Source: Nanobdellati archaeon (GTDB taxonomy: Archaea; EX4484-52; WAPT01). From it: 53,065 nucleotides of DNA. Location of the stretch: the NCBI GenBank assembly GCA_015520605.1, contig WAPT01000011.1:1-53065 (forward strand). Reading direction: 5' to 3'. The position numbers and the translations under genes are program-made. The stretch's first letter is position 1; each line of letters opens with the position of its first letter. The notes beneath the pieces are model-generated. The model was not told the DNA's origin. It did not search any database and saw only the letters and a list, made by a program, of their open reading frames with translations. Below are positions 2,853 through 53,065 of this stretch, piece after piece.

Positions 2853-3200
2853 TCATTTTCTTTTCTTCCTGCAACCTTTGCTGCCGGTTCTCTTCCTCCC
2901 GCCTGTGCTTTTCCTGCGCTTCTTATTCTTCTTTCCTATACTAATCAGGTAGTTTTTAACAATCCTGATAAGTTTCTCCCTGAGATTTTCCCCGTGTGCT
3001 TTCTTTACCAAGTTGAGCCTGGATACGAGCCTACCATGACCATTATCCTTTAGCCAGGGTGCGAAGTGACCGTTACGGAAATGATACTCGAGACTTTCCA
3101 AAGGAACTTCCTTTAGCCTTTCAAGGAATTCCTCGATGTTTGAAGCCCTGCCAACCTCTCTACCATCGGGAAGTCTGAAAATAAATTCAGACATAGCCAA
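2853..3200 (-). CDS. hypothetical protein with a Lys/Arg-rich C-terminal tail
   Basis: 115-aa ORF divergent from the mbh operon. The tail is GKKNKKRRKSTGGRKRTGSKGCRKKRK. No catalytic motif was recognised. Confidence 0.5.
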   Translation of the reverse strand: MAMSEFIFRLPDGREVGRASNIEEFLERLKEVPLESLEYHFRNGHFAPWLKDNGHGRLVSRLNLVKKAHGENLREKLIRIVKNYLISIGKKNKKRRKSTGGRKRTGSKGCRKKRK

Positions 3201-3270
3201 TCTTTGTCCTAAACTCCATATAAAATTTTCGAGAAAATTATATATTCACCAAAACAGAATATTTTGGAAT

Positions 3271-3741: not shown

Positions 3742-3977
3742 TATACACGTATCTTTTGCTTGCAACGACCGTGATGGTTGTGGTAAGGCTCCTTACATCA
3801 CACAAAGTTTATGAATTCATGCTCTGCGCCGATCTGATTTCAGATATGACTGTCCTTTATCTTACAATCTTCGCGTATGCAAGGACAAAGCCGTTTTATC
3901 TTGATATTGCAATAATCCTGGCAATGTTGTCTTTCACAGGCACACTTGCTGTAACGAGATACGTGGTGGAACGTTAA
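3738..3977 (+). CDS. mbhB: Mbh subunit B (MrpF-like)
   Basis: 79-aa protein with three TM segments; operon position. Confidence 0.65.
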   Translation: MIYTYLLLATTVMVVVRLLTSHKVYEFMLCADLISDMTVLYLTIFAYARTKPFYLDIAIILAMLSFTGTLAVTRYVVER

Positions 3978-3982
3978 AGCTG

Positions 3983-4291
3983 GTGATGTGTGTGGTAACT
4001 CTAACAGAAGTGTTATTGAGTGTATCCGCTCTGAGCATGCTTTTCGGAGCCATTGGAATATTCAGGATGAGGAGCTTCATGATGAGGATGCAGGCGGCCA
4101 CGATGATAAGCGTCGGCGGGGTCATGGGTTCCCTGTTCATCTTCACGCTCACCTCTCGTAATACCGAACTGAGATTGAAGTCGGCACTTTTGTTGTTTCT
4201 TTTATTCCTTACAGTCCCCGTGTCTTCCCATCTGATTGCGTTATGTTACTATCGCAGTGAGGAAGAGAGGAAGAGCAGGACGGGTGGTTAA
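3983..4291 (+). CDS. mbhC: Mbh subunit C (MrpG-like)
   Basis: 102-aa membrane protein at the expected operon position. GTG 3983 or ATG 3986 could be the start. Confidence 0.65.
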   Translation: MMCVVTLTEVLLSVSALSMLFGAIGIFRMRSFMMRMQAATMISVGGVMGSLFIFTLTSRNTELRLKSALLLFLLFLTVPVSSHLIALCYYRSEEERKSRTGG

Positions 4292-4842: not shown

Positions 4843-5227
4843 AATTGCCGCTGCGAGCGCGAGGATAATTTTTCCCATTATCATGATCGTGGGTTTAGCG
4901 GTATCTCTACACGGCCACCTTTCCCCCGGCGGAGGGTTTGCCGGAGGCGTTGTGATGGCTACGGGTTTCCTTCTTGTGTTCCTCACCATGAGAAAGGGAG
5001 TTGTGAGGGAGATTTTCATAGAAAAAAAGCTTTCGTTTATGGAGAGCTTCGGTGGATTCATGATTCTTATGATCATTATTTTGGGGGCATCCTATAGAGC
5101 GAAGGTTGTGGGGACACAGCGCCTTTTTTCCCTGTGGAGTGGTGAGTACTCGATACTCATGAACCTCGCCTGCAGTCTGATGGTCGTCACAGCCATAACA
5201 CTAATCCTGTGGAGGTATGTGGAATGA
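4832..5227 (+). CDS. mbhF: Mbh subunit F (MrpB-related)
   Basis: 131 aa; SPGGGFAGGV is typical of MnhB-like subunits. Confidence 0.65.
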   Translation: MMDEIAAASARIIFPIIMIVGLAVSLHGHLSPGGGFAGGVVMATGFLLVFLTMRKGVVREIFIEKKLSFMESFGGFMILMIIILGASYRAKVVGTQRLFSLWSGEYSILMNLACSLMVVTAITLILWRYVE

Positions 5228-5544
5228 TGGAGCACGTCCTTTCAATCCTGCTGATATCCGCGGGGATAATGGTGGTCGTGTTTGCAAAAAGCTTCATGAA
5301 GAAAGTGATGGGTCTCGGAATAATCGTTAACGGGATGCACGCGTACCTCGTGGCATCGGCATACAGACAGGGAGGTGTGGCACCGATACTCACACCAGGT
5401 ATGAAGCTTGGGGGTTTTGTTGGCTCAGCTGTTGATCCCCTGCCTCAGGCTCTCATCCTCACATCCATAGTCATAGATATATCCGTTACCGCGGTGTTGC
5501 TTGCACTCTACATAAGAGCTGTTGAATCGGGTGAAATTCCGTGA
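5224..5544 (+). CDS. mbhG: Mbh subunit G (MrpC/NuoK-like)
   Basis: ATG 5224 forms an ATGA overlap with the mbhF stop. 106 aa with three TM segments. Confidence 0.65.
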   Translation: MMEHVLSILLISAGIMVVVFAKSFMKKVMGLGIIVNGMHAYLVASAYRQGGVAPILTPGMKLGGFVGSAVDPLPQALILTSIVIDISVTAVLLALYIRAVESGEIP

Positions 5545-6968
5545 AAATATTCGGCGCTTCGAGCTTCCAGATCGCGAGCTTCGGGGGTGTCGGAGTGTTA
5601 ATACTCTTTCTCATAATTAACCTCGTGCTCATCTCACGGAAGAAGTCGAGATACCTTCAAGATATAAATCTTGTAGCGTCAGCGACCATGGTTGCGCTTG
5701 CTGTTTTCACCTTTCTAAAGCTAACGAACACACAGGCACCTTCCCTGTCCATGGGCGTCGGCGGATGGGCACCGCCGTTCGGAATAGAGATAAAGATCTT
5801 TCTCTACAACTCGATCCTGATAGTTTTCTCCGCGCTATCGATGCTGCTCGTATTTTTGAGTTTGAGAACCGAAAGGCTCCCGAACGCTGTGCACCCGCTC
5901 TTCCTGCTTCTTTTCATAGGAGTTTTTGGTGTCCTGCATTCTGGGGACATCTTCAACATCTTCGTTTACCTCGAGATCATGACCGTAGCATCTTACGGTC
6001 TTGTCAGCGTTTCCGAGGAGGAGGGAAGATACAACACAGCCCTGTACTATGCATTCCCGATGGCCCTTGTGTCCACACTCTTTCTGCTGGGTATTTTTCT
6101 CATTTACTCCACCTACGGCACCCTCAACCTCTACCAGCTTAGGATGCTATGCGCACATACCGCTATGTTTCCGTTGGCCCTCTTTGGTACTGGCATGGTC
6201 GTGGCTGCTCTGATTTTTGAAAGTGCGCTTTTTCCGTTCTATCTCTGGAAGACGAAGGTGATGTCAACCACAAATGTTCCGGCTTCGTTCTTTTTCGGTT
6301 CGGTTTCTCCCGTGTTGTGCTTCTACCTGATCACAAGGATGATGACTGTCTTCAACCTGCGCTCCATTCCGCAGCTCGATGCTCTGCTTGTTACCCTTGC
6401 GGTAATCACGGGTGTTGTTGTTGCCGTTATGGCGTTCTACTCAAGAAACCTGCTGGAAGCGCTCGCCTACGGAAGCATAGCGCAGATTGCGTTTGCACTT
6501 TTTCTTTTTGTGGTGGCGACACCTTCCAACAACCTCGCCCTCTACTCTTTTGTCCACCTTTTAAATACTATGATCTTCGAGACTCTCATTTTCGGAAGCC
6601 TCATGCTGAGAGGACAGCTAACCGGAGAATATATGGAACCGCTCTTCTCAACGGGGATACTGTCATCAATTGGCGTGCCCCTGACTTCGGGTTTTGTATC
6701 CAAGTACTTTGCTCTCTACTACACTCTCAGAATATCTCCGCTCCTCTTCACATTGTCTGTGGTCTTTGTTATAGCTTCGGTTGCGTACGGAATCAACGCC
6801 TATAACTTGAGAAAGAATTTTCATTACAGAAGAATTGCACGCACATCCCCTGTGGCGCTGTCCGTACTTTTCATATTCTTCGCCTTGACCTTTTTCCTCG
6901 GGATCCATTACAGGCCCTTGATATCGCTTGCAGAGGCTATGAGATCAAGTCTGGAGGTGTGCGGATGA
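5541..6968 (+). CDS. mbhH: Mbh subunit H (MrpD/NuoL-M-N-like antiporter subunit)
   Basis: 475-aa polytopic membrane protein. GTG start forms a GTGA overlap with mbhG. Size and position as for MbhH. Confidence 0.75.
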   Translation: MKIFGASSFQIASFGGVGVLILFLIINLVLISRKKSRYLQDINLVASATMVALAVFTFLKLTNTQAPSLSMGVGGWAPPFGIEIKIFLYNSILIVFSALSMLLVFLSLRTERLPNAVHPLFLLLFIGVFGVLHSGDIFNIFVYLEIMTVASYGLVSVSEEEGRYNTALYYAFPMALVSTLFLLGIFLIYSTYGTLNLYQLRMLCAHTAMFPLALFGTGMVVAALIFESALFPFYLWKTKVMSTTNVPASFFFGSVSPVLCFYLITRMMTVFNLRSIPQLDALLVTLAVITGVVVAVMAFYSRNLLEALAYGSIAQIAFALFLFVVATPSNNLALYSFVHLLNTMIFETLIFGSLMLRGQLTGEYMEPLFSTGILSSIGVPLTSGFVSKYFALYYTLRISPLLFTLSVVFVIASVAYGINAYNLRKNFHYRRIARTSPVALSVLFIFFALTFFLGIHYRPLISLAEAMRSSLEVCG

Positions 6969-14148: not shown

Positions 14149-14179
14149 GTTTGAATCATGCGATATTAAGATTTTTAAA

Positions 14180-14319
14180 TGGTGCGGGGGGTGGGATTCG
14201 AACCCACGAAGGCACTAAGCCACGGGATAACTCAGCCATATCATCGCCGTACAGGCTCATCACTCAAGAGCAAAGCCCTCTTGAGTCCCGCGCCTTTGAC
14301 CAGGCTCGGCAACCCCCGC
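14180..14319 (-). tRNA. tRNA-Leu(CAA) with a canonical 37/38 intron (~51 nt, 14229-14279) and encoded CCA
   Basis: Reverse complement reads GCGGGGG-TT-GCCGAGCCTGGTCAAAGGC-G-CGGGA-CTCAAG[intron]A-TCCCG-long variable arm-GTGGG-TTCGAAT-CCCAC-CCCCCGC-A-CCA. Intron segment GCTCTTGAGT pairs with the anticodon region ACTCAAGAGC. Confidence 0.9.
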
Positions 14320-26500: not shown

Positions 26501-26595
26501 GTTTAAGAAGAACTAGATGGTGTGGAAGGCACACTTTTCCGCTATCTCGCTATCTATATTTCTGAAAGTTTAAGAAGAACTAGACGGTATGGAAG
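26501..26595. repeat. two 28-nt direct repeats (26/28 identical) separated by 39 nt; either a CRISPR-like mini-array or an operator pair
   Basis: GTTTAAGAAGAACTAGATGGTGTGGAAG (26501-26528) and GTTTAAGAAGAACTAGACGGTATGGAAG (26568-26595). Confidence 0.6.
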
Positions 26596-48920: not shown

Positions 48921-49535
48921 TTATATGTATCTCGTGTTTCCAAAAAATGAAACGCCATCCTCACCAAACTCATTGGGAGGTCTTTCATAAGCGGTTAGAT
49001 TACCTTCCAGCAAAATACTTTTGCCATCTTTTTCCAGAGATTCGATATTAACCCCAATTTTCTCATTCAGTTTATTTTCCAGCGGTTCTGTGGGGAATGC
49101 TGGCACCATCCCTGCATGGACGTTTGCATAGAGGGTGTTGTTTTTGAGCAGTCCATGATGCACCCGCAGAGTAGCATCCAGTGCAGTTTTCGGAAGATCC
49201 GACAGAAAATCTTCATCGGGATGGAATTTGTAAATCTCGACTGGTTTGAGATCATTGACCGATAGGGCTCCGGCTCCGCACACCTGTATTTTCTCTATCT
49301 GAAAGGTGAAACCTATATTTTCCCTTTTTTCGTTGTTTGCAGAAAGATGATTTTTAAGGAGGTTCCGATACACTACATTATCCACAAGGAGAGCAGGGAT
49401 ATTTAGCAGATCCTCTAAGGGCGAGTAATTAACATCTTGTAGCTTTCTCTTTGTTTTTTCTGGAAGAGGTTTAACCTGCACGACACATTTATAACATCCT
49501 GGAAATCCTCTATAAATTCGCATCATCGTCATCAC
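48921..49535 (-). CDS. hypothetical protein
   Basis: 204-aa AT-rich ORF with no recognised motif. Confidence 0.45.
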   Translation of the reverse strand: MMTMMRIYRGFPGCYKCVVQVKPLPEKTKRKLQDVNYSPLEDLLNIPALLVDNVVYRNLLKNHLSANNEKRENIGFTFQIEKIQVCGAGALSVNDLKPVEIYKFHPDEDFLSDLPKTALDATLRVHHGLLKNNTLYANVHAGMVPAFPTEPLENKLNEKIGVNIESLEKDGKSILLEGNLTAYERPPNEFGEDGVSFFGNTRYI

Positions 49536-49591: not shown

Positions 49592-49781
49592 TGTTAACAT
49601 TCTGCGGGTATGCGAAGCGCCACCGCCTTTTATCAACGATAGTTAATAAGATGTTAAAATATAAGTTTGGCGGTGGCGTTTGGGCGGAGTGCCGAAGGCA
49701 CAAAGCCGCATAGCCGCTTGTTAGGCGTGGGCGTAAGCCCCGAAGTGAGCGTAAGCGAACGGAGAGTCGGGCGGTGCGGCA
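49592..49781. repeat. GC-rich multi-hairpin repeat, left copy (attC-like: TGTTAAC ... GTTAGGC, plus a 3' extension)
   Basis: Boxes at 49592-98 and 49720-26. Stems are 49604-14/49707-17, 49618-27/49669-78, 49689-93/49697-701 and 49729-32/49737-40. It is homologous to 52951-53065. Confidence 0.7.
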
Positions 49782-50447
49782 CTATTTGTATTTTTTATCT
49801 CCCATTTTGTAATAGAGACAAATATTTCTAATAGGGCACTCTGAACATTTAGGTTTCTTAGCTCTACACACCAGTGCGGCAAAATCCAAAATTGCTAAAT
49901 TAAAGTTCTTACTGTTACCGTGTGGGATTAGTGTTTCGGCAAATTCCCATATCTTTCTATCATCGCGAGCCCTTGATTTCTGTGATTTTATACCAAATAC
50001 ACGGTAAATGACTCTAATAAAGTTCGTATCTAGAAGAGGAACGTTTTTTGAAGAGGTAAAGCTCAAAACTGCATTCGCCGCGTACATTCCTACACCGGGT
50101 AATTCTAATAATTTCTCTAGTTCCAGAGGTATCTCTCCATCATATTTTTCCTTGATATATAAGCCAAATCTCTTAAGCAGTTCTGCCCTCTTATGTTCCA
50201 TTCCTAATGGTTTAAGCAGTTCTTTCAGATCATTTATATCTGCATTTGCCAGAGAATTTGGATCCGGGTAGAGTGATAGGAACTGACTGTATATTTTCTC
50301 AACTTGCTTAGCTGTTGTTTTTCTTAAGAGCATCTCTGCTATAAGTATTGAATAAGGATCTTTAGTATGGCGCCATGGAAAATCCCTTTTGTTCTTTTCC
50401 CACCAGTCTAGGAGAAGCCTTATAAATTGATTTTTCTTATTCTGCAT
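49782..50447 (-). CDS. HhH-GPD/[4Fe-4S] DNA glycosylase (EndoIII/MutY family; Mig-like T:G mismatch glycosylase candidate)
   Basis: FPWR, ILIAEMLLRKT, LPGVGMYAANAV (HhH-GPD) and CRAKKPKCSECPIRNIC (Cx6Cx2Cx5C) motifs. Confidence 0.75.
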   Translation of the reverse strand: MQNKKNQFIRLLLDWWEKNKRDFPWRHTKDPYSILIAEMLLRKTTAKQVEKIYSQFLSLYPDPNSLANADINDLKELLKPLGMEHKRAELLKRFGLYIKEKYDGEIPLELEKLLELPGVGMYAANAVLSFTSSKNVPLLDTNFIRVIYRVFGIKSQKSRARDDRKIWEFAETLIPHGNSKNFNLAILDFAALVCRAKKPKCSECPIRNICLYYKMGDKKYK

Positions 50448-50465
50448 TTTAACACCGCACCCTTT

Positions 50466-51881
50466 TCAGCTTAGCTCGTTAAGTATTGTTTTTACAATCT
50501 GAGCTATTTTTCTGCCAAGCAGGGGAGGTACAGCCTCCCCTATTTGTGCTCTAACTTCAGCAGAACTGCCTTTAAACAAAAAGGAATCTGGGAAGGTTTG
50601 CAGACGCGCCCTTTCTCTATTAGTAAGTTTTCCTCTGCCCCTCCTGTAATGGTAACCCCATGTACCCCCTCCACCATAGGCAACCACAGTATATGACGGT
50701 TTCAGAGGATGAAGTCTTCTATAAATAAGACTGATTCCCCTTCCCTCAACCTCCCACTTTGTACCTCTAACAAATTCGTGGTTTTCATCAGGGGGAATCA
50801 TTTTTAGCCGGTCTAAAACACTTTTTACTTCTCTTGGAACAACATTACTGTGATCGGGAAATTCCCTTCCTTCCAATTTTTTACCATAATATCCTAACTC
50901 TCTCAAAAGCTCTGCATGTTGTTGAAACGCCTCATCTATTTCTCTGGGGTTACTTTCCGTTATTCTGTTCATAAAAATGTAGTCTTTTACAATGTCAAAG
51001 CTCAGTTTTTCCCAAATATCACGCTTCCATTTCTCGGCTTTTTCCGTTTTGACAATTTCTGCAACTTTCCTATATTCCCTCATTACCTCCTCGTACTCAC
51101 TCTGGAGTTCTGGAATTGGTCTGCCCTCAAAAGCTTCAATAGTTGTTAAGGGATACTTTTTAAATACTGAGTTTTCACCGTTAAGTATGCTGGAAGCTTT
51201 CTGTTTTATTGTGTTTGTTTTCAGCCAATCTCCACCGATGAGGTCCTCTCTAACTCCAATAATAATCAAGCGCTTTCTTCTTTGAGGTACGCCCAAATTT
51301 GCAGAATCTACTATGCCAGAAAAAATGATAATGTAGCTTTTAATTTTATTATCTGTATTATTGCCAACAATCTTTTTTATTTCTCCCCATCTCAGCTTAA
51401 GCTTAGAGAAATCCTCTAATATTGTTTTATACGCTGTGCCTCTATTGGCGCTCTTCAGTCCGGGGACATTTTCAAAAACAAAGACCTTCGGCTGAAGGTG
51501 AATAAGGGCCCTTACAAAATGTGCGTAAAGCCGCCCCCTTTTGACTTTTATTCCTTGTCTTTCTTTTTCAGTGCCTCTCACTATTGAAAAATCTTGACAA
51601 GGGGGACCGCCTGCAATAACATCAATTTCATCATTAATTGTGCTGAAGTCTATTTCAGCCACATCGCCCAGCAAATATGCAGGGAAACTGCTTTCCCCCT
51701 TCTGGTTGAACTCACTAACATCAATTACACTGTGCCCAAAGTTTTCTGCATATGTAAGAGCAGGTGGAGAAAGTATATCATTTGCCAAAAGCATTTTGAA
51801 GCTTCCTTCTATTTTAAAGCCGAGATCCATTCCACCGGCACCGGAAAAAAGCGATACTAAAGTATACTCATCCTTCATCAT
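50466..51881 (-). CDS. DNA (cytosine-5)-methyltransferase
   Basis: Motif I is LFSGAGGMDLGF, motif IV is GGPPCQDFS, motif VI is FENVPGL, motif VIII is QRRKRLIIIG, and motifs IX-X are TFPDSFLF...QIGEAVPP. Confidence 0.9.
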   Translation of the reverse strand: MMKDEYTLVSLFSGAGGMDLGFKIEGSFKMLLANDILSPPALTYAENFGHSVIDVSEFNQKGESSFPAYLLGDVAEIDFSTINDEIDVIAGGPPCQDFSIVRGTEKERQGIKVKRGRLYAHFVRALIHLQPKVFVFENVPGLKSANRGTAYKTILEDFSKLKLRWGEIKKIVGNNTDNKIKSYIIIFSGIVDSANLGVPQRRKRLIIIGVREDLIGGDWLKTNTIKQKASSILNGENSVFKKYPLTTIEAFEGRPIPELQSEYEEVMREYRKVAEIVKTEKAEKWKRDIWEKLSFDIVKDYIFMNRITESNPREIDEAFQQHAELLRELGYYGKKLEGREFPDHSNVVPREVKSVLDRLKMIPPDENHEFVRGTKWEVEGRGISLIYRRLHPLKPSYTVVAYGGGGTWGYHYRRGRGKLTNRERARLQTFPDSFLFKGSSAEVRAQIGEAVPPLLGRKIAQIVKTILNELS

Positions 51882-51890
51882 CCTTCACTC

Positions 51891-52895
51891 CTATAAGCGT
51901 TCAATCAACCTGCGCCAATTTTCCTCTCCCCACTTCAAACCTCCGGAGTGCGCCAGAAAGTGTGGCGTAGTTAGAGAGTCAATGATAGGTTCTATTTCTA
52001 TTCTAAGAGCTCCGTCTGGATCAAGCTCTCTTATGCGCGGATGATTCCGCAGTGTTTCTCTCGAAAATATGCCAATACCTTGGGTTACAGTAATTCTTAT
52101 TTTAGTTCTTCCCTTTTTCCGGCAAATTAGCTGATGTATGGGAAGGTTCAATTCATTTTTATTCAAATATCCTGCTATGTATGCAGGAATTGGATCGAAC
52201 TGTGGAATTTCATCCCAAAGTTCCTCAGCCATAGCATCGTTTAGCTCACCAAGGTTTTTTGCTTTGGGGAATAGCTTATCCTTCAGAAAACTGATTGCCT
52301 TCAAAAAAGCCAAAAAGTGGTGCCTCAGAATTCCTATTTTTACTAAAATAAAAATATCAGAATGTTCTATTTGAGCACCCGGCACATCAAGCCATCTGCC
52401 GTTAAACTTGGTTGTTTTAATGCTGATCTTCATATGGGGATTTCTCCAGTCCTCATGTGGAAATCTTACCTTAACAATATCTGTTGGAAGGAATTCAGTT
52501 AATTCTCCTCTGCGCGTGTCCAAAGCTGTTTCTATACCAAATTTTTCTTTCAAAAATTTTGACACAGCTATTTCCCCTAAAAAACCTCTTGAGGTGTCAG
52601 TCCACACCTGAGCCATATCACGCTGTCTTGAGCTACCAAAATCTGTGCCAGCAAAAACAGGAGCAAGCCACAAAGCTCTTACCAGAGCTTTGGAGTAATC
52701 ATCTTTATCAAGCCAGACAAATTGATATTTAAATCTATCTTCAAACCAGTTTTCAAAACTTATACCGTTAATTTCCAATCCCTCTTTAGCACCTCTTAAT
52801 ATTTGCACAGCAAGTGTGCGCGCAGAGTTTGTGTCGTTTATTTTTTCTTCCAGAAAATTAGTAATCCTTCTTATATAAGATTCATCCATATTCAT
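51891..52895 (-). CDS. putative type II restriction endonuclease partner of the C5-methyltransferase
   Basis: 334-aa ORF 9 nt upstream of the methyltransferase gene, with a GAGGTG RBS. The only possible PD-(D/E)xK-like segment is PTDIV...KISIKTTK. The call rests mainly on context. Confidence 0.45.
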   Translation of the reverse strand: MNMDESYIRRITNFLEEKINDTNSARTLAVQILRGAKEGLEINGISFENWFEDRFKYQFVWLDKDDYSKALVRALWLAPVFAGTDFGSSRQRDMAQVWTDTSRGFLGEIAVSKFLKEKFGIETALDTRRGELTEFLPTDIVKVRFPHEDWRNPHMKISIKTTKFNGRWLDVPGAQIEHSDIFILVKIGILRHHFLAFLKAISFLKDKLFPKAKNLGELNDAMAEELWDEIPQFDPIPAYIAGYLNKNELNLPIHQLICRKKGRTKIRITVTQGIGIFSRETLRNHPRIRELDPDGALRIEIEPIIDSLTTPHFLAHSGGLKWGEENWRRLIERL

Positions 52896-52932
52896 AGTTT
52901 AACACCTCTTCTTTTTTATTCCTTTCTTTCAA

Positions 52933-53065
52933 GCCGCACCGCCCGATTACGCCTAACGTTTGGTGGGCATGCGAAGTGCGAGGCGAAGCCGAGCATTTGA
53001 GTGAGCACCGAAGGTGCGAACCGCATACCCGCTTGTTATATGACCCGAACGAAGTGAGGGCGAGG
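52933..53065. repeat. GC-rich multi-hairpin repeat, right copy (attC-like: GCCTAAC ... GTTATAT), truncated by the window end
   Basis: Boxes at 52951-57 and 53035-41. Stems are 52963-73/53022-32, GGC-GAA-GCC (52982-90) and GCACC-GAA-GGTGC (53005-17). The 5' extension at 52933-46 is complementary to 49767-80. Confidence 0.7.

Follow-up and report, generated by a model that had tools for sequence, protein, structure and literature searches.

What are two GC-rich repeats that bracket a restriction-modification (R-M) operon at the very end of an archaeal contig? The question is posed by contig WAPT01000011.1 of a Nanobdellati archaeon (assembly GCA_015520605.1), a stretch of 53,065 bp with an overall G+C content of ~44%, which we analysed as a whole and refer to as the window in the following. 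The repeats, here called site L (49592-49781) and site R (52933-53065, which runs into the contig end), are homologous and co-oriented and stand out as GC-rich from AT-rich surroundings. As the window is the complete contig, R is cut by an assembly break and not by windowing. The two repeats are members of a widespread family of attC-like sites, and positions 49598-52956, read on the minus strand, probably form the distal unit of an integron-like array on an archaeal chromosome, a single mobile R-M gene cassette. From left to right, the window contains the chromosome, L as the last site, a cassette with R-M and glycosylase genes, site R and the contig end.

Both sites follow the same layout, which consists of TAAC, 5 nt, an 11-nt arm, two inner hairpins, a complementary 11-nt arm, TT and GTTA. 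In L, TGTTAAC (49592-98) is followed by the spacer ATTCT, GCGGGTATGCG (49604-14), CGCATAGCCGC (49707-17), TT, GTTAGGCGT (49720-28) and TCGGGCGGTGCGGC (49767-80); in R, the order is GCCGCACCGCCCGA (52933-46), ACGCCTAAC (52949-57), GTGGGCATGCG (52963-73), CGCATACCCGC (53022-32) and GTTATATGA (53035-43). A first-pass annotation, made by a model from the letters alone, had described two homologous, co-oriented GC-rich repeats, and every motif that it listed was found in its place. It had also likened their ends to RYYYAAC and GTTRRRY boxes. Both sites do carry TAAC and GTTA boxes, but agreement with the full consensus is partial: the AAC/GTT part holds, while TGTTAAC and GTTATAT do not fit beyond it.

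Chance is a poor explanation for these similarities. The 18-mer CCGCATASCCGCTTGTTA, common to L and R, occurs twice in the window, against 0.02 occurrences expected, and the 14-nt arm TCGGGCGGTGCGGC of L is the exact complement of the start of R, where 0.09 matches are expected even with two mismatches allowed. A covariance model of the family, built from 12 cores, scores L with 82 bits and R with 90 bits (E ~1e-20), and both fold as predicted. Their starts lie 3359 nt apart. Even with filters off, the model finds no third copy in the 53 kb of the window and hence none to the left of L, in line with the earlier proposal that L is the last site. The contig could not be extended to the right, as look-ups with the endonuclease and with a neighbouring housekeeping protein gave only contigs that break in the same repeats. 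The parts of the two sites are as follows.

49592-49598, minus strand: R' box of site L, which reads GTTAACA in gene-sense direction, predicted to be the last cassette/chromosome junction, with a putative exchange point between 49597 and 49598; a scaffold carrying the chromosomal flank (ENA scaffold_79) stops at 49597.
49599-49719, minus strand: core of site L, with a 5-nt unpaired spacer, the 11-nt L arm (49604-14), its partner arm (49707-17) and TT, based on the fold, the covariance-model match and covariation.
49617-78: hairpin 1 of site L, with a 41-nt AT-rich loop.
49689-701: hairpin 2 of site L, GTGCC-GAA-GGCAC.
49720-49728, minus strand: R'' box of site L and its extension, which together read ACGCCTAAC in gene-sense direction and pair without mismatch with 52949-57.
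49729-49766, minus strand: GC-rich insert of L between the R'' arm and the outer stem arm, with the hairpins GGGC-GTAA-GCCC and GC-GTAA-GC; other family members have homologous inserts.
49767-49780, minus strand: outer stem arm (TCGGGCGGTGCGGC on the plus strand), the exact complement of 52933-46.
52933-52957, minus strand: cassette start, which reads G|TTAGGCGT, AA, TCGGGCGGTGCGGC in the gene-sense direction and pairs with 49720-28 and 49767-80; the exchange point is predicted between 52956 and 52957.
52954-53038, minus strand: core of site R, i.e. the site of the next cassette upstream, with TAAC, GTTTG, an arm (52963-73), hairpin 1 (52977-95), an arm (53022-32), TT and GTTA, based on the covariance-model match and the fold.
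53005-17: hairpin 2 of site R, GCACC-GAA-GGTGC.
53039-53065, minus strand: start of the GC-rich extension of R, ended by the contig end; in near-identical copies at the family loci L016 and L018, this extension continues as AGCGAAGCGACGAAG...

A further feature is the way in which the ends of a cassette match each other. The bases directly outside GTTA of one site find their complement on the other side of the cassette, directly outside TAAC of the following site, and not within their own site. In the window, this match is exact over 9 + 14 nt, as the first-pass annotation had noted, and the rule extends to the whole family: an exact complementary run of at least 4 nt beside the boxes is found in 17 of 31 cross-cassette pairs, compared with 3 of 73 within-site pairs (Fisher p = 1.3e-8), and the median local complementarity score over 40-90 nt is 9.75 across cassettes versus 5.55 (p = 2.6e-8). 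Complementarity of this kind across cassettes marks the sites as hybrids, the signature of integron-type exchange at GTT.

Cassettes that recur at different loci place the boundaries in the same position. Loci L063 and L068 have a 1-kb cassette in common (97% identity), which, on the gene-sense strand, starts exactly at GTTA and runs through the genes into the downstream core, and loci L016 and L085 are 100% identical for ~105 nt from CGTTA, while the five preceding bases differ. In another assembly of the same population, the 78-kb ENA scaffold_79, which carries the chromosomal flank, ends at window position 49597 (TGTTAA|). Taken together with the complementarity rule, these boundaries support the earlier prediction that the cassette spans 49598-52956 and is bounded by hybrid sites at G|TT. 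When the window's cassette ends are joined (52956 to 49598), the predicted single-stranded DNA fold has -63.9 kcal/mol (z = -7.85); the integrated site L has -41.6 kcal/mol (z = -2.9).

The family was assembled in several steps, all of which draw on metagenome assemblies. A pattern scan for the 18-mer, with one genome per species, gave many chance matches, among them most of those in bacteria, which lie inside one conserved coding sequence. Eleven matches, mostly from archaeal metagenome-assembled genomes (MAGs), also had the conserved 5' half, which was absent from the search pattern. Their sources include Archaeoglobales, three Thermoplasmata, two Methanoperedenaceae and Heimdallarchaeota. 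Another 52 loci were contributed by a metagenome scan, most of them from the sample series to which the Guaymas-named MAG contigs L018 and L028 belong. Pattern scan and covariance model together yielded 76 non-redundant copies in 44 loci, 23 of which hold two to five copies. Core lengths range from 57 to 167 nt (median 79), and TAAC and GTTA are present in 60/79 and 70/79 copies, respectively.

These copies form arrays. Neighbouring copies are separated by 750-4990 nt (median 1.9 kb), and 31 of the 32 adjacent pairs are co-oriented; there are, in other words, stretches with at least two co-oriented sites less than 4 kb apart and gene cassettes between them, which is how integrons are recognized. 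The scattered behaviour typical of miniature inverted-repeat transposable elements (MITE) or repetitive extragenic palindromes (REP), which the first-pass annotation had named as evidence that would speak against its proposal, was not seen. In all arrays for which open reading frames (ORFs) were listed (the window, L016, L018, L061, L080, L085, L093, L095 and L099), the cargo genes run opposite to the model strand, apart from inserted or recombinase genes, and the distance from the end of each gene set to the site that follows ranges from a few nucleotides to a few dozen. In gene-sense direction, a cassette begins with GTTA-NNNG-AAAT... and an AT-rich leader that includes a ribosome-binding site; one to three genes follow, and after them a GC-rich extension, NNNNNTAAC-AA, the first L arm, two hairpins, the second L arm, N5 and a final G. 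The cargo of the other cassettes includes methyltransferases, endonucleases, McrBC, a TIR protein, TmtA as well as mads and PDC candidates, and 6 of 10 tested cargo proteins from other cassettes match PADLOC families. Arrays of this kind occur in many archaea, with defence genes as the predominant cargo. No copies turned up in viral contigs or plasmids.

As the cargo genes are opposite to the model orientation in all listed arrays, the minus-strand reading of the window is the general one. Cross-cassette complementarity by itself fits plus- and minus-strand readings alike. A plus-strand cassette (49721-53035, with antisense genes) is disfavoured by the gene orientation in arrays and by the L063/L068 and L016/L085 boundaries.

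Several loci deserve separate mention. Two typical arrays come from MAGs with bacterial labels, L023 (Clostridia bacterium) and L028 (bacterium B30_G16), which reflects either mis-binning or a presence beyond archaea. At L057, a site on the plus strand (3973-4071) faces two on the minus strand (176-259 and 3135-3233), and at L068 (~1890-1960), a truncated site is joined to an inverted partial one; such occasional inverted sites suggest inversions or rearrangements between sites. The ICMT-like cassettes of L016 and L085 are 95-100% identical in their first ~105 nt and their 3' extension, with ~58% identity in the coding middle, a mosaic that suggests recombination or conversion at the cassette ends. 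Lastly, L016 has an IS110-family transposase gene (5020-6018) inside an attC-like site, right after TAACA, with remnants of the site at ~6226-6284 and 4923-4990. This insertion resembles the bacterial IS1111-attC elements, which target integron attC sites.

The structure common to the family is well supported by covariation. Each site can fold into an R stem (NNNNNTAAC/GTTANNNNN), an asymmetric unpaired spacer of 5 nt on one side and 2 nt on the other, an L stem of 11 bp (GCGGGTATGCG/CGCATACCCGC) and two inner hairpins that end in C-GAA-G loops; an inner pair of arms set off by an unpaired spacer, with a variable end structure, is also expected of an integron attC site. Standard pairs occupy 94.4% of the pair cells in the 76 copies, double-sided changes number 193 compared with 46.8 +/- 7.3 in shuffles, and controls with slid partners pair in at most 47%.

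Three features of the sites are strand-specific, namely the 5/2 spacer, two almost invariant G.T pairs and the C-GAA-G loops. On the strand antisense to the genes, CGAAG occurs 197 times versus 3 times for CTTCG, and GCGAAGC 61 times versus none; the two G.T pairs are found on this strand as well. The loop excess and the G.T pairs favour folding of the bottom DNA strand over an element in the cassette mRNA, and the strand signals as a whole point to bottom-strand folding as in integron attC sites. The oligonucleotide d(GCGAAGC) is an exceptionally heat-stable DNA mini-hairpin, and the C-GAA-G mini-hairpins suggest single-strand folded recombination sites adapted to high temperature.

If these sites recombine, which enzyme acts on them? 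The window has no gene for a tyrosine recombinase, as had been noted before. Several of the arrays found by pattern do have such genes or parts of them: the gene is intact in L061 and a pseudogene in L018, and C-terminal fragments of it are present in L085, L078, L080 and L015. The L061 protein belongs to a family of 270-aa tyrosine recombinases with 3,299 matches below 1e-30, whose members are 63-100% identical across Thermoplasmata, Aenigm-, Woese-, Pace- and Nanoarchaeota and Altiarchaeales; such identity across distant phyla suggests horizontal spread. To approach the association from the other side, the contexts of six family members were retrieved starting from the protein and not from the repeats. 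Arrays lie directly upstream of, and divergent from, the recombinase gene in L093/L094 (three sites), L095 (with TIR and McrBC cassettes) and L099, in the same arrangement as in L061. At another six loci, only 100-515 nt of sequence precede the recombinase gene before the contig breaks off, and at one Aenigmarchaeota recombinase locus, no family repeat was detectable.

The site nearest to the recombinase gene is a reduced repeat, in which a short palindrome (arms of ~8-10 bp, 5-nt spacer) is followed by N4-7, GTTA and a typical cassette start; in L095, for example, it reads GATTATGCG-AATTA-CGCATAATC-TAAA-GTTA. The closest solved relatives of the recombinase are archaeal XerA proteins (5hxy, 4a8e). 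Its alignment to the Vibrio integron integrase VchIntIA falls into two parts, and the 67-residue specific insertion of VchIntIA has a counterpart of 22 residues. Its scores are 194-220 bits with the XerA equivalog NF040815 (cut-off 220, reached by one of four proteins) and 184-200 bits with the integron-integrase model TIGR02249 (cut-off 265). An IntI-type protein was not found in any array locus.

Two observations concern variants of this gene. The C-terminal fragments (L085:842-1240, L078:57-215, L080:1213-1374 and L015:6276-6398) comprise ~45-90 residues, recur at array heads, are co-oriented with the cassettes and do not include the N-terminal catalytic arginine region. Behind each of them, one or two short palindromes precede GTTA and the beginning of a cassette; the fragments may be relics or small functional proteins. 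In L100 (1-514) and L101 (1-162), a recombinase homolog adjoins cdc6/orc1, with upstream repeats of ATAGTGAATTCAAG-type boxes that resemble origin recognition boxes; in this lineage, the recombinase gene may lie beside a replication origin.

The window itself adds a cargo operon, encoded on the minus strand.

52896-52932, minus strand: AT-rich leader with the ribosome-binding site GAGGTG (reverse complement of 52903-08).
51891-52895, minus strand: type II restriction endonuclease, 334 aa (PADLOC REase_II PDLC03411, 8e-74).
50466-51881, minus strand: C5 cytosine DNA methyltransferase, 471 aa (PF00145, 1.5e-52; TIGR00675; PADLOC MTase_II, 1e-178).
49782-50447, minus strand: Mig.MthI-like HhH-GPD 4Fe-4S DNA glycosylase, 221 aa (PDB 1kea, E = 1e-55; PADLOC PDLC03398).

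The endonuclease, which has no match in Pfam, NCBIfam or PDB sequences, is separated from the methyltransferase by 9 nt, and the adjacency of these two genes is that of a type II R-M system. The gap to the glycosylase gene is 18 nt. Tight packing of the genes, a ribosome-binding site (GAGGTG) before the first ATG and a glycosylase stop codon (49782-84) 1 nt from repeat L agree with the layout that the first-pass annotation had described; one detail needed adjustment, as the leader measures 61 nt from TTAGGC, not 55. The glycosylase combines the Pfam domains HhH-GPD and EndIII_4Fe-2S, and its closest solved relative is the T:G mismatch enzyme Mig.MthI (1kea). It is therefore likely the T:G mismatch repair partner of the C5-methyltransferase, and judging by homology, the cargo is an R-M operon with a repair partner for deaminated 5-methylcytosine, a pairing that would make sense for a thermophile. 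C5-methyltransferase, endonuclease and a Mig-like HhH-GPD glycosylase are likewise joined in the R-M type of M.MthTI/Mig.MthI, which belongs to the Methanothermobacter plasmid pFV1; unlike there, the three genes in the window are packed as one mobile cassette.

A 204-aa ORF without Pfam, NCBIfam or PADLOC match (48921-49535, minus strand) lies directly downstream of the last site; it may be a chromosomal gene or the remnant of a cassette that has no site. The same endonuclease-methyltransferase-glycosylase operon, 86-89% identical, is also present in another context (L108:1-3845, Logan SRR13776100). Its homology to the window begins at about the leader (52896-52932), and it keeps a mutated 5' extension and ACGTCTAAC-A, while core and outer stem are gone, so that it resembles a decayed or truncated cassette. 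Elsewhere in the window, a low-GC stretch has two copies of the 28-nt repeat GTTTAAGAAGAACTAGATGGTGTGGAAG (26501-26528 and 26568-26595; 2 mismatches, 67 nt apart), which may be a minimal CRISPR-like array with one spacer. The minus strand carries an intron-containing tRNA gene at 14183-14319, which marks the window as archaeal, and 21 nt at the contig start (52-72) are 90% complementary to its end (14178-14198); the contig may thus start within a second tRNA gene, of which it retains the 3' end.

How could such an array work? The recombination itself, a single-stranded folded substrate, the exact cleavage position and the acting enzyme are what we infer from the patterns above. A site would fold when the strand antisense to the genes is single-stranded, and a tyrosine recombinase would carry out the strand exchange at the G|TT of the R' box or directly beside it. 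With exchange at this position, every site of an array would be a hybrid: its R' tail would be part of the next cassette, and the R'' box and outer stem of the latter would be its pairing partners. On excision, the resulting circle would carry a site with a stem longer by ~25 bp. The likely enzyme is the conserved 270-aa Xer/IntI-like recombinase at array heads, as suggested by its adjacency to arrays at other loci. For the window, the array head and the recombinase gene would lie beyond the right contig end, or the recombinase might be encoded elsewhere in the genome.

Several points weigh against an integron-like cassette at 49598-52956. The window has only two sites, one of them truncated, and no recombinase gene in its 53 kb, and neither an excised circle nor an empty site was observed. 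Assembly breaks flank the L core on both sides: in other assemblies, the cassette lies on separate 3.2-kb contigs that correspond to 49704-52958 and 49723-52984; public data with this cassette are the runs SRR10312500 and SRR13776100 and the sample of ERZ23495238. Contig ends alone thus cannot place the crossover. Furthermore, the decayed L108 keeps genes and extension and loses the core right after TAACA. Given these breaks and L108, the core is assigned to the upstream genes mainly through the comparison of L063 and L068, and L108 and the breaks at 49704/49723 leave some doubt on the minus-strand reading. In the structure, the L stem has no extrahelical bases and no conserved bulge, and there is no excess of G.T over A.C pairs (51 vs 43) outside the two fixed G.T pairs, the only positions at which this strand test is informative. 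All family data derive from metagenomes. Concerning the enzyme, the recombinase, as aligned, lacks the IntI-specific domain and its score borders the archaeal XerA model; together with the cdc6 gene and origin-like repeats of L100, this means that it may be a housekeeping Xer of the host. Finally, a proxy for classical attC sites (model R2, built from the aadA7 attC and eight archaeal attCs shown to recombine with IntI1) did not match any family member at E <= 10, with filters on or off.

This last result bears directly on the idea that the window shows a classical integron in the guise of a cluster of attC sites lacking an integrase (CALIN), in which L and R are true attCs, a canonical IntI is encoded elsewhere and the Xer-like neighbors are incidental. 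Archaeal integrons were described in 2022 by Ghaly et al. in 75 MAGs, including Archaeoglobales, mostly as attC clusters without integrase; the set contains six IntI proteins with the IntI-specific domain, and one Archaeoglobales MAG has two attCs (PMC9668308). Moreover, our sites share TAACAA...CGTTA, R and L stems, length range, array spacing and hybrid-site behavior with attC. Nevertheless, we consider a classical integron quite unlikely. The published archaeal attCs follow the classical form TAACAAxTC..CAGCCGAC ... GGCTGA..C-GTTA (PMC9668308), and the motifs of our family are absent from the supplementary attCs of that study; the L-box sequences differ, the proxy model fails, no array locus has an IntI-type protein, and several independent genomes have a member of the 270-aa Xer-like family at the head of an array. 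A purely structural or regulatory role, as REP/MITE-like repeats, terminators, insulators or small RNA genes of GC-rich islands, would account for strong structure and covariation, for the position directly after stop codons and for high GC in AT-rich surroundings, yet it is very improbable: the strand that folds better and bears the motifs runs antisense to the flanking genes, the complementarity across cassettes and the occurrence of cassettes in different contexts need recombination at the sites, and recombinase genes sit at array heads. An RNA gene at L or R was rejected on the grounds of this antisense position and of empty searches (Rfam 15 without match at L, R or six array loci, ARAGORN without match at L or R). 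A dispersed REP/MITE repeat does not agree with just two copies in 53 kb, both at the cassette, and with clustering in arrays elsewhere. A tRNA-type att site was rejected as well, since the only tRNA gene of the window is that at 14183-14319.

A different possibility is that the cassettes are modules that exploit the Xer/dif system, similar to integrative mobile elements exploiting Xer (IMEX). The enzyme would then be the host's XerA and the palindrome beside its gene the dif site, which in archaea is expected as a single 11-6-11 site near the terminus; integration would proceed on duplex DNA via a dif-like core (CGCATA...GTTA) in each repeat, and the hairpins would be accessory. The best structure matches of the recombinase are indeed to archaeal XerA, its 194-220 bits approach the equivalog cut-off of 220, the adjacent site is a short palindrome followed by GTTA, as in L095, and one homolog lies beside cdc6 and origin-like repeats. 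CGCATAA and GTTAAAT-like motifs also recall bacterial dif, which we treat as a lead only. We still regard this scenario as unlikely. Duplex exchange needs no complementary cassette ends, yet the ends match over up to 23-25 bp and covary, the loops are strand-specific C-GAA-G, and a recombinase that is 63-100% identical between distant phyla speaks for horizontal spread. In Thermococcales, furthermore, dif is not adjacent to xerA (PMC2958812).

Returning to an integron-like array as the preferred reading, we tentatively propose, with slightly less than an even chance of being right, that it exemplifies a second, IntI-independent kind of integron widespread in archaea, in which a simple Xer-type recombinase captures and shuffles gene cassettes through heat-stable, three-way-junction hairpin sites and thereby builds defence islands. 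This recombinase would possibly double as the chromosome-dimer resolvase or be recently derived from it, and the system could either resemble an ancestral stage of integrons or have been invented independently. In the literature searched, which yielded only the 2022 paper on archaeal integrons and general recombinase surveys, neither this site family nor a Xer-type integron is described.

Integrons are the classic platform for gene capture, and their report from archaea in 2022 involved classical sites and IntI. In the family described here, arrays are organized in the same way, but the sites differ and the recombinase is simpler. Should this be confirmed, the IntI-specific domain would cease to be a requirement of the integron principle. 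The finding also bears on the origin of integrons from Xer recombinases. With defence genes as the main cargo (R-M, McrBC, TIR and others), it also offers a mechanism by which archaeal defence islands may be assembled and exchanged across phyla in hydrothermal sediments. In practical terms, the covariance model would permit the annotation of arrays, which currently break assemblies and probably go unannotated.

How, then, do these arrays compare with known systems? The first-pass annotation had suggested an integron-type element. Integron-like arrays, hybrid sites and a tyrosine recombinase that borders arrays elsewhere were found, whereas the absence of the IntI-specific domain and the unmatched proxy attC model set the family apart; with domain and profile tested in this way, we file it as integron-like in mechanism, but not as classical. 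As in integrons, co-oriented imperfect palindromes of 57-167 nt are separated by one to few genes and have TAAC(AA)...(C)GTTA inverse-core and core boxes, L arms and an unpaired spacer; the sites are hybrids implying exchange at GTT, the better-folding strand is antisense to the genes, and a tyrosine recombinase gene lies at the array head, usually divergent from the cassettes. Even the IS110-family element inside a site has its counterpart in the bacterial IS1111-attC group. Unlike in integrons, the IntI-specific domain is missing from the recombinase, the L boxes have another sequence, and two inner hairpins make the site a three-way junction. The spacer is 5/2, the L stem shows no conserved bulge, and an extra outer stem and GC-rich insert lengthen the site to ~190 nt. 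The recombinase-adjacent site is a small palindrome and not a classical attI, many cassettes are operons of several genes that bring along an AT-rich leader, and the proxy attC model misses the family altogether.

The resemblance to Xer/dif systems lies in the simple 270-aa Xer-type recombinase, closest to the XerA structures 5hxy and 4a8e, in the short palindromic site beside its gene, in the hairpin-forming substrate and in the tandem arrangement of integrated modules. Related cases are known: CTX-phi has a folded single-stranded attP that is recombined by XerCD, XerS has an adjacent difSL, and Acinetobacter carries pdif modules. By contrast, the present family has dozens of sites per lineage, in direct orientation and with cassette spacing, covarying hairpin arms span each cassette, and its modules are gene cassettes, not phages or islands.

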